DNA from: a virus
Taxonomy: Duplodnaviria > Heunggongvirae > Uroviricota > Caudoviricetes
DNA length: 40,622 nucleotides
Direction: 5' to 3' (one strand)
Virus record (IMG/VR): IMGVR_UViG_2534682002_000024
The translations under genes were made by a program, and so were the position numbers. Shown here piece by piece: positions 1 through 6,495 of the stretch. Each line of letters starts with the position of its first letter. The stretch's first letter is position 1. The notes under the pieces were generated by a model, which saw nothing but the letters and a program-made list of their open reading frames with translations, was not told the DNA's origin and searched no databases.

Positions 1-1251
1 CTACGCTAAACCAATAAAGAACCCGGCAATGGTGGCACTCATCAGGTTAGAAAGTGTCGCCGCCGCCAGCGCGCGTAAACCAAGCTGGGCGATTTCCGGC
101 GCACGGTGTGGCGCAACCGCAGAAAACGCCCCCACCACCACCCCGATAGAACCAAAGTTAGCGAAACCGCACAACGCGAAGGAAATAATCGCCACGGTTT
201 TAGCATCCAGAGTGCCAGCCGTTTGCAGATAGGGTGAGAAATTGAGATAAGCGACAAATTCATTTATTGCCAGTTTCTGTCCAATCAAACTCCCGGCAAG
301 ATTCGCATCACTCCAGTCAACACCCATTACCCACGCCAGTGGGGCCAGCAGATAACCTACAATGGACTCCAGCGAGGCATGTTCAAAACCAAACCAGCCG
401 CCAACGCCGCCGATAATACCGTTAATTAACGCAATGATGGCGACGAATGCCATCACTACTGTCGCCACACCTGCGGCGATTTTCAGCCCGGTCATTGCCC
501 CTGTCGCGGCGGCTTCAATAATGCTTTTTGGCGGTGTTTCGGTGAAAGAGAGGTTATTAAAAGAAACCTGCGAAGATTCCGTAGCCGGGCTTAGCAGGCG
601 GGCAAACAAGATCCCCCCGGGGATCGCCATTAACGATGCCGCCAGCAAATATTCCACAGGCACGCCCAGTGCGGCATAACCAATCATTGTCGAACCAGCA
701 ATCGAGGCCATGCCGCTACAAATCGCTGTAAATAATTCATTGCGATTCAGCCGATCGATAAAGGGCTTCACAATCGCCGGAATTTCGTTTTGCCCGAGGA
801 AAATGGTAGTGACCGCGACGAATGACTCAATCTTGCTGATATTTAATGCTTTCTGGAATATACCGCCGAGAATGCGAATTAAAATCCCCATCACACCGAT
901 GTAGTAGAGAATACTCACCAGTGCAGTGACGAAGATAATTGCCGGTAATACCCTGAAACCAAAGATAAATCCTGCGCCATCAAATAAGGTGTCCATTTTC
1001 GGTCCGACCAGAGAACCGAAGATAAATGCGCTACCCGCGTCGCTGTACGCCATCACTTTATGCACACCAAAAGCGACTTTTTCAGCGACCCAACGCCCTG
1101 GCGGTAACCAAAGCATAATGCCGCCAATCACGACCTGTAACACTAACGCCGCGCCAACGGTACGCAGGCTGATCTTCTTCTTGTTTACTGACAGTAAAAA
1201 CGCAATCGTCAGCAATACCACCATTCCCAGAACACTTCTCATGACATCCAT
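1..1251 (-). CDS. NupC-family concentrative nucleoside transporter (host gene, 3' end runs off window start)
   Basis: 416-aa multi-pass membrane ORF whose N-terminus MDVMRSVLGMVVLL and overall profile match enterobacterial CNT transporters (NupX/PsuT type); recognised from memory, paralog not resolved. Confidence 0.85.
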   Translation of the reverse strand: MDVMRSVLGMVVLLTIAFLLSVNKKKISLRTVGAALVLQVVIGGIMLWLPPGRWVAEKVAFGVHKVMAYSDAGSAFIFGSLVGPKMDTLFDGAGFIFGFRVLPAIIFVTALVSILYYIGVMGILIRILGGIFQKALNISKIESFVAVTTIFLGQNEIPAIVKPFIDRLNRNELFTAICSGMASIAGSTMIGYAALGVPVEYLLAASLMAIPGGILFARLLSPATESSQVSFNNLSFTETPPKSIIEAAATGAMTGLKIAAGVATVVMAFVAIIALINGIIGGVGGWFGFEHASLESIVGYLLAPLAWVMGVDWSDANLAGSLIGQKLAINEFVAYLNFSPYLQTAGTLDAKTVAIISFALCGFANFGSIGVVVGAFSAVAPHRAPEIAQLGLRALAAATLSNLMSATIAGFFIGLA

Positions 1252-1674: not shown

Positions 1675-2412
1675 TCATTCACTCTCTTTCAAACCAGTTT
1701 TAACTGTTTGTGGTTTTGGGTAAGGCTGGACTTTGAATAGCTTTGTGTTGAGGCGTTTTTTGGCCCTCTTGTTCAGAAACCGGATGTAACGAAACTGTCG
1801 GAACTTATGAACATTGGCTCTGTCAATATTAGCCCTCAGATGTTCACCTCGTTGTCCGCCTCGTTTAATGGCATTCCTGCAAATCTCGTGATACCACTCG
1901 CCATCAAGTTCATAGAATATTGATTCATGGCTGCCTACATAATCAAAATTGCTTGCCTGATACACGACACCAAGACAGCCACAACGCTCATCTGCAAACG
2001 ACTGAACCCACTGTACCTGCGGATAAAGCTGCCTGATTAGCTTGAGCGCGTAACTGATTGCCCTTGATTCGGAGTTTCTCGGCATACAGTCATGCAGCCA
2101 TAGCCGGTTAAGCTCCATATATTCTCGGTTCTGCGTACCCGTTACGACGCGTGCACCACTGTTTGGGTTAAGGGCGTAACCCCATTGCATTACGCCAACA
2201 AGTTCCCGTTCTGAAAATATGCCCAGATGAAGGTAGGAGTTATTTACGAAACGGTGGCTGTAATGTTTATTGACGATGACCAGTCTGGCCAGCCAGCAAC
2301 TTATTGTCTCAACCCGCAACTCACGGGAGCCATAACCAACGATATTGTCGTTATAGCGAATAAGTTCAGGCGTGCTGATGATTCGGGATGTGACTTGCTT
2401 TCTGTTCCCCAC
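1675..2412 (-). CDS. mom: Mom-like DNA modification protein (acyltransferase-like)
   Basis: 245-aa ORF that is the last gene before the prophage end and overlaps the 3' end of a Com-like zinc-finger gene, which is the com-mom arrangement of Mu. Size is near Mu Mom (about 231 aa). Identity rests on context, not sequence recall. Confidence 0.6.
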
Positions 2413-2566
2413 GACAGGATTTCCTTGTGTATGTGGGGTGCTCTGTGGCGCTCGGAGATGTGATTTGATTGAGGGTTTTACAGCGCGGACATTTTACTTC
2501 CAGATAACTGAAACTGGCCCGTGCCAGTAGCTTATTGCAGTGTCGGCACCGTATGTTTCGATACAT
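2366..2566 (-). CDS. com: Com-like zinc-finger translational activator
   Basis: [14 protein letters not shown]...VKCPRCK has the CxxC...CxxC spacing and residues of Mu Com (IRC.NCNKLL...CPRCK). An AGGAGG Shine-Dalgarno lies 10 nt upstream of the ATG at 2566. The track ORF begins at an upstream ATG (2611) that I consider less likely. Confidence 0.7.
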
Positions 2567-2599
2567 GGCCGCATAACCTCCTGCTTTGTTGTTGATGCC

Positions 2600-2790
2600 T
2601 TTCTCATGCAATCGATCGACAAAAACGATCGATTCGATTTGTTTAATTGATACAACAAATAGATTGAAAAGTCATCAACAATGATTCAGGTAGGTGATTA
2701 TTTACTTAAAGAAAACGAAGAGTTAGGTGGTGAAAACGATCATAAAATGATCATTTTATTGACTTTTTATATAGTGAAGGTAGGATCGCG
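2600..2790 (-). promoter_or_regulatory. GATC-rich candidate Dam/OxyR-regulated mom promoter region
   Basis: Five GATC sites (2614, 2627, 2738, 2749, 2784) within about 175 bp upstream of com in AT-rich DNA. Mu Pmom is controlled through clustered Dam sites. Confidence 0.4.
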
Positions 2791-2979
2791 CGTATATGTA
2801 GTATGTTTCAAATCAATGGGATACTACATACATAAAGAGCGACCCAGATAGCGCGAACTATTCTGGGCCGATTTAGACAATTTTGCATCAATGCTTTACT
2901 TCGAGCTCGTGGCGTATCCTATGATATTCCCCAGTCTCCTGTAAAGCAGAGATGCATAAAAAGGAGATCTTTATCATGG

Positions 2980-3147
2980 ATGAAAGAGCCTGTTTGCCCT
3001 GCCTGTAAGACTCCCTTACAGCTCATCTATCGCCGTTCTCGATCTCAAAATGGCAAGACATACAAACCAAAAAATGCTTCCTGTTTCAGGATGCTGATAT
3101 GTCCTGCCTGTTCTCCCCGGAGGGAAAATACACAAAACGTGCATTAA
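2980..3147 (+). CDS. Unlisted 55-aa double-CPAC zinc-ribbon ORF (MKEPVCPACKTPLQLIYRRSRSQNGKTYKPKNASCFRMLICPACSPRRENTQNVH)
   Basis: Found by manual translation; below the ORF track size cutoff. AGGAG at 2962-2966 precedes it. Two CPAC motifs plus a third Cys suggest a zinc ribbon. It is divergent from com-mom in an otherwise non-coding gap of about 570 bp. Confidence 0.3.
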   Translation: MKEPVCPACKTPLQLIYRRSRSQNGKTYKPKNASCFRMLICPACSPRRENTQNVH

Positions 3148-3185
3148 CAAATTCACCCGGCAGGGAAACCTGCCGGTCGGTATTG

Positions 3186-3431
3186 TTACATCATAGTACC
3201 GTCAGTTCCGGGCTGAACCGGCTCTGGTTGCTCTACGGGTTGAGGCTCATTTTCCGTGCTGTTTTCAGCCGGAGAACGGCCAACCATTCGGGCCAGCACT
3301 TCATCAACATATGCGTCGATTTGTGCCTCAAAATCCTTGCGAACCTGCGCCTTCAGCACGCGGTTCACTTCTTCAGAATAAAGTGCCTGTTTGACAAGCT
3401 CTTCAGTAACCGTGCCTTTAATCTCTGGCAT
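3186..3431 (-). CDS. Hypothetical 81-aa protein with helical N-terminus and acidic proline-rich tail
   Basis: ORF with AAGGAG-like RBS upstream (caaaaggagaatattc-ATG). No recognisable family. Confidence 0.5.
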   Translation of the reverse strand: MPEIKGTVTEELVKQALYSEEVNRVLKAQVRKDFEAQIDAYVDEVLARMVGRSPAENSTENEPQPVEQPEPVQPGTDGTMM

Positions 3432-3466
3432 GAATATTCTCCTTTTGCAGGTATATTGCCCCGTTA

Positions 3467-3649
3467 TCAGAGCGGGGTCGGGTCGTTTGGGGATGACGGT
3501 GCCTGTGCTGTTTTACTGAGTTTTTCAGCTGCCGCATCATCAATTTTACGGCGAATATAATTTCTGATGACCTTATAACCGCCGCTCACCAGATATAACG
3601 CACTGACCACTGCGCAGAAATAAAGCAGCATTGTATGAACGAATGTCAT
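3467..3649 (-). CDS. Hypothetical 60-aa small membrane protein (one N-terminal TM helix, basic C-terminus)
   Basis: Hydrophobic stretch MLLYFCAVVSALYLVSGGY followed by a charged tail. A GC hairpin (CCCCGttatcagaGCGGGG, about 3453-3470) separates it from the next gene. Confidence 0.45.
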   Translation of the reverse strand: MTFVHTMLLYFCAVVSALYLVSGGYKVIRNYIRRKIDDAAAEKLSKTAQAPSSPNDPTPL

Positions 3650-3795
3650 ATAACCTTACCTTTGATATTGACTACATAATTCGTTATCGGGTAAAAACAT
3701 CGAAGCGACTGATAACTACTCCTTCGGTAGTATTTTTATTTTCCTTTATGGGTTAGGTAGCTCCCGCCAGCCGTATCATGACCGGCGGGATTTTT

Positions 3796-5835
3796 TTATT
3801 CTGTTACCGCTTTTTTCACTTCCACCACAATGCTGTCAATCAGCACCGGGTAAGTTGCATTTTTGGTGATATCCGTTACGCGGAGTTTGTCCACCGGGAA
3901 AGTTCCTACTGGTGACTGCGTCAGGGTAAACGCGGCACCATCCTGACCATCAATAACCGGAATAACCTGAAGGCTGTTATTTCCTGCAAAACGGAAGGCC
4001 AGCGTATGCCATTCATTATCAAATGCACCAAAGGTTCCCAGTTTCTGGTTATTTGTTGCCACTTTTGCATTGTGGTACATCACATTCAGGTCTTTTGCGT
4101 CTGTCTGGATGTAGAACGATGCCAGCAGATTATTCCCTGCATCCCCTGTCAGGGTGACACCCTGCGGCAGAGAGGAAACCGGCCAGTAAAGCGCCATGAC
4201 ATACTGGTTTGCCACCAGGTCGCCAGGTACTTTAAAACGACAACTGATTAAACCACCATTTTTCAGCAGTTCAGCACCAGTACCGGCATCATGATCCAGA
4301 TACCAGGATGATTTACCTGTTTCCTTGGTCAGTTTCATTGCCTTACCACCTGTGCCTCCTGCATCACTGATAATTTCAGCTTTACCGCCAGCCGGCTCCC
4401 AGCCCTGGGCTTTCAGATTTCCTTCTGACTCACTGACACGGTAAGACAGCAGTGTTGTGGTTACTGCTTCAGTTTCTGAAGGTGACGGCACTGGTGCTTC
4501 AGTTTCAGAAGATGGAACATCGGCTTTTACTGTGGTTCGCCCTGCATGAGTCAGAACAGCCGTGGCCAGACGGTCAGAAATAATACCCCGGCGCGCCCAG
4601 GCACTGAAATGGCTGGCCCGGTCCGCAGATGTCCAGGTAGCGGCACTGTTACGCCACGTTGAGCCGTAATAACCAATGGATTCAATATCCGGGTCTTCTG
4701 CCGGATTGTTGGTGGGTACATTCACGCCATTTTCATCTGTCATTAATGGAACGAAATGAATGTTTTTATCTGTTTTGTTTTTGTAGCCGCCATAGATTGC
4801 CTGGTATGCTGGTTCATTTTTCTGTTTCCAGAAATACGTGGTATCGCCACAAATCCACGGAACGCCAGCAGCACTGCCACCGGTACACTGTTCCGCCTGT
4901 TCAGCCAGGTCTGCGCGGAATTTTTCCACCATCGCCAGAAACAGCGCAGAATGCTCCGTCGGCTTCGCATCAATATCAAACTCGCCCTGCATCCACACCA
5001 CAGCAAGCAGGCGGTTTTTCGGGTTCTTCGCCAGTGCCGCTTTTGTCCGGCTGATTAAGTCCTTATACAGCGGCTTATCCACACCCCAGCGGGCTGAGTC
5101 CTCTGAAGCACCCGTGCTGTCACTGTACGTGCCGTCAGCACCCGCCGTGAATGCAGAACCACCACGGCAGCAGGGAACCAGCAGAATCCCCGCATCTGCC
5201 GGAATAAACGGCAGCAGTTTTTTGGCAATGTGAAGCCCCTGACCCACGGTGCCATATTGCCCTTTAGCCACATCCGCTTTCGGGTGATTTTTTCCACTCA
5301 TATCCTGCACATCATGCAGACAGTGGTCGGCCAGAATGATGTCGTTATACTGACAGGCTTTACCTCCCGGCGTGACTGTACTGCGACGGGCTAACTGCAT
5401 AATACGCGGTTCGGGGCGGTCATATGTCTCCGGCAGTGGCAGACCTTCACCGTAAGCCATACCGTTTGACTGACCAGCAAGAACCACCACGTAATACCAG
5501 GAAGGGGAGCTGGAAGCAGTTTCATTTCCTGACGGACGGGTATGTGTTTCAGCATTATCCCAGTCTGACGGTTCAGCAGTACCGGCAACATCAGCACTTA
5601 ACGGAATGACCGCACCAATACCCGCTCCGGTAATTTCCACACTCGGATCACCGGATACTGGCCTTACCCACAGGCAATCCCGTGTATTAAAACTGATGAG
5701 ACAGTCAGCAAATGTCATTCCTCCTTTTGTTTCGGCCGGAGGAAAGGGAGCCTCAAGAAATGCCGCTGTACCACCGGAAACTTTAACAGTAAAGTTTCCG
5801 GGCATTGATGATAGTTGAACCCATTTGGACGTCAT
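3796..5835 (-). CDS. 679-aa SGNH/SASA-type carbohydrate esterase with lectin-like beta-sandwich C-terminal domain (cargo gene)
   Basis: VVVLAGQSNGMAYGEG carries the GQSN motif typical of sialate O-acetylesterase-like (SASA/DUF303) SGNH hydrolases. No N-terminal signal peptide. An S/T/P-rich linker precedes a C-terminal region that looks like a concanavalin/laminin-G type domain. It occupies the gin to com-mom interval. Confidence 0.6.
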   Translation of the reverse strand: MTSKWVQLSSMPGNFTVKVSGGTAAFLEAPFPPAETKGGMTFADCLISFNTRDCLWVRPVSGDPSVEITGAGIGAVIPLSADVAGTAEPSDWDNAETHTRPSGNETASSSPSWYYVVVLAGQSNGMAYGEGLPLPETYDRPEPRIMQLARRSTVTPGGKACQYNDIILADHCLHDVQDMSGKNHPKADVAKGQYGTVGQGLHIAKKLLPFIPADAGILLVPCCRGGSAFTAGADGTYSDSTGASEDSARWGVDKPLYKDLISRTKAALAKNPKNRLLAVVWMQGEFDIDAKPTEHSALFLAMVEKFRADLAEQAEQCTGGSAAGVPWICGDTTYFWKQKNEPAYQAIYGGYKNKTDKNIHFVPLMTDENGVNVPTNNPAEDPDIESIGYYGSTWRNSAATWTSADRASHFSAWARRGIISDRLATAVLTHAGRTTVKADVPSSETEAPVPSPSETEAVTTTLLSYRVSESEGNLKAQGWEPAGGKAEIISDAGGTGGKAMKLTKETGKSSWYLDHDAGTGAELLKNGGLISCRFKVPGDLVANQYVMALYWPVSSLPQGVTLTGDAGNNLLASFYIQTDAKDLNVMYHNAKVATNNQKLGTFGAFDNEWHTLAFRFAGNNSLQVIPVIDGQDGAAFTLTQSPVGTFPVDKLRVTDITKNATYPVLIDSIVVEVKKAVTE

Positions 5836-5934: not shown

Positions 5935-6495
5935 TTATTTTTCCGAAACGCTCGCAGGATAATAACGATAAAGGGTTGAAAGACCGATATCAAAAATAAG
6001 TGCCACCTGTCTTCGACTGACACCCCCGGCCAGTAAACGCCCGACCTGCTCGTATTGTTCCTGCGTGAGACGGCGGGGTCTGCCGCCGGTTCGTCCCCTT
6101 TCACGGGCAGCTGCAAGACCAGCCCGTGTCCGTTCGACAATTAATTCACGCTCCATTTCTGCCAGCGCACCCATTATGTGAAAAAAGAAGCGCCCCATGG
6201 GGGTTGACGTATCAATGTTGTCAGTAAGACTACGAAAATTTATCCCCTGTTGCTGTAATTCATCTGTCAGCGCAACAAGGTGGCGCATACTGCGCCCCAG
6301 CCTGTCCAGTTTCCAGACCATCAGCGTGTCACCGGGTTTTAGTTTCTTCAGTGCCCGCTTCAGTCCCGGCCGCTGTGTCGTTTTACCACTCATTTTGTCT
6401 TCAAAAATCTGCTCACATCCTGCACATTCCAGCGCATTTCTTTGTAAACCGGTGTTCTGGTCATTTGTTGATACGCGTATATAGCCAATCAGCAT
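5935..6495 (-). CDS. gin: Gin/Pin/Hin-family serine DNA invertase
   Basis: MLIGYIRVSTNDQNTGLQRNALECAGCEQIFEDK...WKLDRLGRSMRHL is nearly identical in pattern to Gin/Pin. 186 aa. Transcribed away from the adjacent invertible segment. Confidence 0.9.
   Translation of the reverse strand: MLIGYIRVSTNDQNTGLQRNALECAGCEQIFEDKMSGKTTQRPGLKRALKKLKPGDTLMVWKLDRLGRSMRHLVALTDELQQQGINFRSLTDNIDTSTPMGRFFFHIMGALAEMERELIVERTRAGLAAARERGRTGGRPRRLTQEQYEQVGRLLAGGVSRRQVALIFDIGLSTLYRYYPASVSEK

Follow-up and report, generated by a model that had tools for sequence, protein, structure and literature searches.

A 55-codon zinc-ribbon gene behind a predicted structured leader, beside com in Sp18-type Mu-like prophages

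Introduction

The mom control region of bacteriophage Mu is Dam-sensitive, and mom itself is considered toxic. Translation of mom is activated by Com (PF10122), a small, basic zinc-ribbon protein with four cysteines in two knuckles, including CPxC. To our knowledge no gene product has been assigned to momP2 of Mu. This is a divergent promoter in the mom control region that fires away from mom, according to a passage of PMC3378877 that cites Sun and Hattman 1998.

Other systems offer further points of comparison. The late-gene activators Ogr and Delta of phages P2 and P4 (PF04606) are small zinc-binding proteins with four cysteines. The Ogr motif is C-X2-C-X22-C-X4-C. The YgiT/MqsA zinc finger (TIGR03831) and the generic zinc-ribbon families of Pfam have CxxC, about 30 residues of beta hairpins, and CxxC. 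Lambdoid phages carry morons, which are units of promoter, gene and terminator.

We have analysed a 40,622-nt stretch of DNA from a virus of the Caudoviricetes (IMG/VR record IMGVR_UViG_2534682002_000024), here called the window, in which a small ORF with two CPAC motifs lies in the gap upstream of com. Its product resembles Com in being small and basic with four cysteines in two knuckles, and both genes are found within one control region of a Mu-like phage. However, its knuckles are 31 residues apart rather than the 15 found by alignment in the Com of the window. Moreover the gene is on the opposite strand some 400 bp away, is monocistronic as predicted, lies outside the mom operon and is missing from Mu. 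The likeness to Ogr and Delta extends to a small phage protein with four cysteines, but the cysteine spacing and the phage lineage differ. The order of knuckles and hairpins is that of YgiT/MqsA and the generic zinc ribbons, but the matches fall below curated cut-offs and cover a knuckle or part only, and the protein has neither an HTH domain nor a toxin partner. The gene is moron-like in having its own predicted promoter and terminator, a low GC content and an alternative occupant, and in being missing from the type phage. Unlike a moron it follows a long conserved structured leader that is common to the alternative occupants and tied to the mom control region. Its homologues in Salmonella have the same cysteines, MDKE start, leader and position divergent from com. 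They differ in lacking C35, in a shorter C-terminal tail and in their cargo neighbours, and they too are uncharacterised.

Results

The gap upstream of com

The window contains a Mu-like prophage inserted in a host gene, and its left end corresponds to the right (mom) end of the phage. The genes that frame the gap are:

1..1251, minus strand: host transporter gene
1675..2412, minus strand: mom
2366..2566, minus strand: com, starting at ATG 2566 (the PGAP start)
2980..3147, plus strand: gene for the 55-aa C4 zinc-ribbon protein, ATG 2980 to TAA 3147
3186..3431, minus strand: DUF826 gene, on the far side of the gap from com
3467..3649, minus strand: DUF1378 gene
3796..5835, minus strand: SASA/DUF6645 esterase gene (sialate-esterase-like)
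5935..6495, minus strand: gin invertase

The same order is found in prophage Sp18 of E. coli O157:H7 Sakai (ECs4992-ECs4998). The DUF826, DUF1378 and SASA/DUF6645 genes (window 3186-5835) are placed between gin and com of a Mu-like prophage. Stx phages typically carry a DUF826/DUF1378/SASA esterase trio in their late region. We considered an origin of the zinc-ribbon gene from this Stx-phage cassette (nanS-p/DUF1378/DUF826) and rejected it, given Salmonella copies that are without the cassette.

The gap measures 619 bp between ATG 2566, where com starts, and the stop of the DUF826 gene at 3186. The figure of about 570 bp in the original prediction corresponds to 574 bp, which is obtained when com is extended to TTG 2611, and does not apply to the ATG start. 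The gap had been described as AT-rich, and it is, with a GC content of 0.41 compared with 0.53 for the whole window; that of the zinc-ribbon ORF is 0.45. It had also been thought otherwise empty. This is not the case, as it holds the mom control region, a predicted promoter and structured leader, and a 56-aa ORF (2681..2851). Seven GATC sites occur in the gap where 2.3 are expected (P 0.006). Two are located between the divergent promoters and one in the predicted −10 element of the promoter that we call P1. The enrichment fits a Dam-sensitive mom control region as in Mu.

A conserved reading frame with frame-specific synonymous bias

The ORF 2980..3147 encodes MKEPVCPACKTPLQLIYRRSRSQNGKTYKPKNASCFRMLICPACSPRRENTQNVH. 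The 55 codons on the plus strand, the AGGAG ribosome-binding site and the two CPAC motifs about 30 residues apart, all of which were in the original prediction, can be read directly in the sequence. The motifs occupy residues 6-9 and 41-44, and the knuckles are separated by 31 residues. The Shine-Dalgarno sequence is as follows:

2962..2966, plus strand: AGGAG, within AAGGAGATCTTTAT, identical in all E. coli and Salmonella copies

The length of the ORF alone means little, since an ATG-initiated ORF of at least 55 aa was found in 31% of shuffled gaps. Requiring two CxxC motifs as well reduced this to 0.08% of shuffles, and of 20,000 shuffles none had two CPxC motifs in such an ORF.

The substitutions are more informative. 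Of 11 variable sites tabulated for the E. coli copies, reading in this frame makes 7 synonymous, whereas the other two frames give 2 and 3; one further site is nonsynonymous (R to Q). The Salmonella copies have 13 synonymous and 4 nonsynonymous sites in frame, against 1/14 and 3/12 in the other two. Pooling the two species gives 20 of 29 sites synonymous (binomial P ~8e-7 against a neutral 25%); with diversity low, few events underlie the counts within each species. Between E. coli and Salmonella, identity at codon positions 1, 2 and 3 is 62, 73 and 40%, 15 of the 25 identical residues are specified by different codons, dN is 0.42 with dS saturated, and all indels are multiples of three, so that whole codons are gained or lost.

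Of the 18 family sequences aligned, 17 have all of the knuckle cysteines C6, C9, C41 and C44, the exception being one rare variant. The middle cysteine C35 is not conserved, and is absent in the Salmonella form. Among 39 E. coli-type copies sampled, 35 are intact with the four knuckle cysteines, three have the change C7Y and one is frameshifted. Handles for the altered forms are L032/L054, L040 and L041 (C7Y), L023 and L053 (frameshifts in A runs) and P0045 (third cysteine to tyrosine). About one in ten sampled copies thus has a change expected to inactivate the zinc ribbon, which would fit an accessory gene that is dispensable, in prophages undergoing decay.

The frame-specific synonymous bias, together with a homologue of 43-46% identity that has the same cysteines in the same position, argues that 2980..3147 is a genuine stand-alone protein-coding gene. 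The suggestion of a small zinc-ribbon-type gene is borne out by this comparison, and the conservation of the ORF and its four knuckle cysteines in related prophages, proposed as a check, was found to extend to the Salmonella homologue.

The start codon of the window requires comment. The in-frame ATG 2980 is spaced from AGGAG by 13 nt. ATG 2976, at 9 nt, is better spaced but is out of frame, opening a 10-codon ORF that reads MDERACLPCL and stop. Most relatives lack the G at window position 2982, so that their DNA reads ATGGATAAAGAG and ATG 2976 is in frame (MDKEPVCPAC...) to give a protein of 56 aa. The insertion of G at 2982 in the lineage of the window and Sakai itself creates the new in-frame ATG 2980. 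From this comparison the ancestral start is evidently ATG 2976, with the G inserted in the lineage of the window. Because of the 13-nt spacing and the better-placed out-of-frame ATG, expression in the window may be weaker than in lineages without the G.

Homologues and predicted fold

An exhaustive HMMER search of 1.8 billion representatives gave four matches, of which one was a distant relative, a 53-aa Salmonella protein. The Salmonella homologues are 52-53 aa in length and 43-46% identical (e.g. UniRef A0A379QYM7_SALER; P0032 and P0034). They form a cluster of 59 variants, one on 511 contigs, all annotated as separate small proteins. Two profile searches revealed no further homologues, none of the GTDB species representatives carries the ORF, and in the phage collection it was found only inside two Stx phages with a Mu-like insert. 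Within these collections the family is thus found only in Mu-like prophages of E. coli and Salmonella, always beside com-controlled modification genes.

No characterised Pfam family was matched, and generic zinc ribbons scored below threshold (Zn_ribbon_TFIIB with 21.2 bits against a cut-off of 22; Trm112p with E 0.005). NCBIfam gave YgiT_finger only, for the Salmonella form (E 0.04), and PHROGs a weak match to the uncharacterised phrog_9584 (E ~0.01). There was no match to PADLOC defence profiles at E<=0.1, and none in a sequence search of the PDB. Neither sequence, profile nor fold comparison yielded a relative of known function; by fold, the nearest matches were to small, cysteine-rich phage proteins, themselves uncharacterised.

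The kinship with Ogr/Delta or Com that had been proposed comes down to a generic CPxC knuckle. As a Com paralogue the protein was rejected, with an hhalign probability of 6.4% over 7 columns and no PF10122 match at E<=1; as a positive comparison, the Com of the window itself matches PF10122 at 3.2e-12. Membership of the Ogr/Delta family was rejected likewise, with no PF04606 match at E<=1 in the Pfam scan.

AlphaFold2 gave a model with mean pLDDT of 79.9 and strands at residues 14-18, 21-23, 26-28 and 36-40. As modelled, the protein is a four-stranded C4 zinc ribbon, in which the two CPxC knuckles should hold one zinc ion. The net charge calculated from the sequences is +9 here and +6 in the Salmonella form.

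Public annotation and the upstream frame

The gene had been called unlisted. That is true of the gene list on which the prediction was based and untrue of public records, which cover this DNA under other names. In Sakai Sp18 it is the last third of ECs4996 (154 aa; NP_313023.2), an uninterrupted ORF with its last 55 residues identical to the zinc-ribbon ORF. In a near-identical O157:H7 genome (99.5% identity with the window here, and 99.9% over a wider 6-kb region) PGAP annotates the equivalent of 2681..3147 as 'hypothetical protein, frameshifted', joining the zinc-ribbon ORF to the following:

2681..2851, plus strand: 56-aa ORF, probably non-coding, overlapping the mom control region, P1 and stem-loops 1 and 2

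Relative to Sakai, the window has indels of +3 and −1 nt around 2829-2846. The continuous frame from ATG 2681 to the stop at 3147 is broken in the window, and is out of the zinc-ribbon frame in most lineages. In the commonest lineage (P0012, 213 contigs) the upstream ORF leaves the zinc-ribbon frame and has an unrelated end, with a length of 135 aa. The upstream 100 codons have 6 synonymous and 14 nonsynonymous sites in frame, compared with 5/15 and 7/13 in the other frames, and the upstream part differs from the small ORF in this respect (Fisher test, P 0.008). In Salmonella the upstream frame is closed and there is no fused ORF; the small gene is annotated separately (52-53 aa).

Given that the upstream codons have no coding signature, and overlap the mom control region and the structured leader, the 154-aa ECs4996 ORF is probably an over-call. 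The 56-aa ORF is probably non-coding. Both the 154-aa and the frameshifted-pseudogene calls would be artefacts of an open frame that runs through regulatory DNA into a real gene. The name ECs4996 was not found in the literature searched or in the Sakai Ribo-seq supplements, which list short genes only (PMC5597208).

Promoter, leader and terminator

The elements predicted on either side of the gene are as follows:

2759..2786, plus strand: predicted sigma-70 promoter P1, TTGACT-16 nt-TAGGAT, back to back with the com-mom control region
2795..2830, plus strand: stem-loop 1 (UAUGUAGUAU...AUACUACAUA) at the predicted 5' end of the transcript, with an invariant stem and a variable loop
2843..2867, plus strand: stem-loop 2, with a hypervariable stem that is always compensated
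2884..2956, plus strand: stem-loop 3, a long hairpin with a 16-nt inverted repeat at its base (TGCATCAATGCTTTAC at 2884-2899, partner at 2941-2956)
3157..3176, no strand assigned: terminator-like hairpin CCGGCAGG-GAAA-CCTGCCGG, between the convergent zinc-ribbon and DUF826 genes

The consensus scan for P1 is not significant alone. However, its hexamers and 16-nt spacing are kept over wholly different spacers in Salmonella, as TTGACT-16-TAAGAT and TTGACG-16-TATAAT. The scan and this conservation together suggest that P1 is a conserved promoter. A GATC (2784-2787) overlaps its −10 hexamer, and is missing from several Salmonella versions.

The leader is predicted to be extensively folded. The helix of stem-loop 1 is 100% paired in seven sequences with one compensatory pair, and has a stability of −10.4 kcal/mol (z −2.9). 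Stem-loop 2 has at least seven unrelated stem sequences among E. coli and Salmonella, each of which folds to 9-13 bp; it is not a canonical terminator on either strand. The inverted repeat of stem-loop 3 contains two mismatches. At −29.3 kcal/mol (z −6.4) this hairpin was not equalled in stability by any of 200 shuffled sequences. It has compensatory pairs at 94:166 and 121:141 and G-U pairs that fit the plus strand only, while some of its pairs are broken. For the whole leader structure 97.4% of cells are paired in seven related sequences, compared with 93.4% on shuffling and 27-48% when the structure is slid. The leader is conserved more than the coding sequence between E. coli and Salmonella. 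An Rfam search of 2400-3300 gave chance-level matches only.

Downstream, the GC-rich hairpin at 3157-3176 has −19.7 kcal/mol (z −4.5) on the plus strand and −19.3 kcal/mol (z −3.0) on the minus strand, with a T tract too weak for the terminator scan. The Salmonella homologue ends in a canonical terminator, CTCCAGCC-TTAT-TGGCTGGAG-TTTTT. The promoter, the transcript ends and the RNA structures are all predictions.

Several minor features of the leader were noted. Positions homologous to stem-loop 2 are also present in L003, L006, L035, L044 and L045, and the unit of ~79 bp containing it is tandemly duplicated in O91 (L005) and Salmonella L045. The sequence TCTCCT (2935-2940) is complementary to AGGAGA of the ribosome-binding site (2962-2967); in a transcript from which the left arm of this hairpin (stem-loop 3) is missing, TCTCCT is predicted to pair with the Shine-Dalgarno sequence at −13.9 kcal/mol, with a z of −1.2 that is not significant. 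Within stem-loop 3 there is a candidate activator-type promoter, TTTACT-19-TATGAT (2895-2925), with a palindrome GCATCAATGC centred near −43. Its −10 is conserved, yet the same bases are accounted for by the RNA hairpin.

An exchangeable slot

The gap sequence is present in 233 of 5,426 complete E. coli genomes, at many chromosomal sites as expected of a transposing phage. The zinc-ribbon gene always lies 390-440 bp divergent from com, accompanied by mom or a C5 DNA methyltransferase, while its far-side neighbours change entirely between prophages. With the cargo variable and the com side constant, the gene belongs with the com end and not with the esterase cargo. That it might regulate the adjacent cargo, as had been suggested, is therefore unlikely.

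The slot may also be empty or differently filled. In Mu the gene is missing and only 94 bp separate gin from com, and in the E. coli variant L024 both leader and gene are absent. A scan with the leader revealed six prophages, including FORC_069, with an unrelated ORF after the same leader:

L004 3862-4068: alternative 68-aa ORF, also in L056, L060, L062, L064 and L067, conserved, with the start MDKLTTD[PQ]KLQAARIAADITIAAMTST...

The 68-aa ORF also starts ATGGATAAA, and has no Pfam, NCBIfam or PADLOC match. Prophages of the FORC_069 type keep com-mom and the leader, with this ORF in place of the zinc ribbon. Because the zinc-ribbon gene is missing in Mu and L024, and replaced by the 68-aa ORF elsewhere, it is probably not needed by com-mom. 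The picture that emerges from these comparisons is of an exchangeable small-gene slot behind a conserved predicted promoter and leader, adjoining the mom control region.

The modification gene itself also varies. In many Salmonella Mu-like prophages (L035 3398-4610; L044, L045 and L047-L051) com is followed by a 350-aa C5 DNA methyltransferase (PF00145) and not by mom, and the same arrangement occurs in one E. coli contig (L024 165-1217). It appears that Com has here come to control another DNA-modification enzyme.

Discussion

We consider it probable that 2980..3147 is a stand-alone 55-aa zinc-ribbon gene with its own transcription unit, located in an exchangeable slot by com; its basic product may be a nucleic-acid-binding modulator. 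Transcription would begin at the sigma-70 promoter 2759-2786, and pass through an untranslated leader of ~185 nt with three stem-loops to reach the AGGAG and the ATG. It would end at a hairpin terminator common to the gene and the convergent DUF826 gene. In Sp18-type Mu-like prophages of both E. coli and Salmonella, the gene would occupy an accessory slot at the mom end. The very basic protein would bind nucleic acid and act as a small modulator, dispensable for com-mom. The nucleic-acid binding is deduced from the charge and fold only, and as a function it is our tentative best guess. We rate an accessory factor that binds protein almost as highly, and a dedicated regulator of mom lower.

Two other readings concern whether there is a gene at all. 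We find it hardly credible that the ORF arose by chance, with its conservation due to an overlapping RNA or DNA element. ORFs of such length are indeed common in shuffles of the gap, and the surrounding DNA is highly conserved for regulatory reasons. But the third-position and synonymous bias is confined to the zinc-ribbon frame, every indel that separates the E. coli and Salmonella forms is a multiple of three, the cysteines are kept at 43-46% identity, and two CPxC motifs never arose in the shuffles. It is very unlikely, if somewhat less so, that a frameshift in a 154-aa gene of the ECs4996 type has left the 55-aa ORF as a C-terminal pseudogene fragment. Such a gene could be seen in the uninterrupted ORF of Sakai Sp18 ending in the same sequence, in the frameshifted PGAP call in the near-identical relative, in the assignment of the long ORF to the PHROG family phrog_26524, and in its being open through an indel-rich region in two lineages. 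Yet the long ORF leaves the zinc-ribbon frame in the lineage of 213 contigs, and its upstream 100 codons have a synonymous count no better than those of other frames while overlapping the promoter, GATC sites and covarying hairpins. In Salmonella, moreover, the small gene stands alone behind a closed upstream frame.

The remaining alternatives accept the gene and differ in its role. The product could be moron-type cargo whose target is a protein of the host or of a rival phage, and not nucleic acid, with a role in exclusion, anti-defence or host modulation. This is possible but not our favoured view. The predicted promoter and terminator, the GC content below that of the phage, the absence from Mu, the variable slot with its alternative occupant next to other cargo, and the closest folds among uncharacterised small cysteine-rich phage proteins are all as expected for a moron. 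By contrast there is no PADLOC match and no evident partner, the strong positive charge favours a nucleic-acid ligand, and the leader is conserved more strongly than is typical of a simple moron. We are more doubtful that the protein is, as had also been suggested for mom, a dedicated regulator of the com-mom or com-methylase operon, for example an RNA- or DNA-binding repressor or co-activator, divergently transcribed and coupled to mom via shared Dam-sensitive DNA. The constant divergent placement next to com with Mom and C5 methylase alike, the GATC enrichment with one site in the −10 of P1, the basic protein and the momP2 precedent in Mu (in the passage of PMC3378877) would suit such a regulator. 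However, Mu has no such gene, FORC_069-type com-mom prophages carry the unrelated 68-aa ORF instead, L024 has neither leader nor gene, the GATC in the −10 is missing from several Salmonella versions, and there is no homology to Com.

Our preferred reading, a stand-alone gene for a basic modulator in an exchangeable slot, can be extended in a more speculative and rather unlikely form. This would be a divergent arm of the mom control region of Sp18-type prophages, giving an mRNA with a three-hairpin leader that encodes an exchangeable small protein. Expression would be coupled through GATC-rich (Dam/OxyR-type) DNA to the toxic modification operon, with the zinc ribbon modulating that operon or its consequences, and the arm would be the counterpart of momP2. 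Like momP2, P1 is predicted to fire away from mom out of the same control region, but the P1 region does not align with Mu, and we put forward the equivalence of P1 and momP2 as a hypothesis only.

The find is mainly one of re-annotation and is modest. It would correct the annotation in ~230 complete genomes of E. coli, the Sakai reference for O157:H7 among them, where a real gene of 55-56 aa is hidden in a probably fictitious ORF of 135-154 aa or flagged as a pseudogene. It defines a small, uncharacterised zinc-ribbon family, and brings to light a conserved structured leader and a predicted promoter firing away from mom. If the gene or the leader interacts with mom control, there would be a purpose for the long-known divergent transcription there. 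If not, this is one more small prophage accessory protein.

Other features of the com-mom control region

A 9-bp hairpin made of two CGATCG sites (AATCGATCG-ACAAAAA-CGATCGATT; window 2610-2634) precedes the com start by ~45 nt and is probably part of the com-mom leader; it is conserved in Salmonella. For the mom promoter and the C-protein site there are two candidates, put forward as suggestions only: ACCACC-17-TAAGTA at 2703-2731 on the minus strand, and a published prediction 121 bp upstream of com.

In uninduced Sakai com (ECs4997) had an RNA RPKM of 81.7 and a footprint RPKM of 727 in LB, and 178 and 405 respectively in BHI (PMC5597208, S2 table). com is thus translated in the Sakai lysogen.
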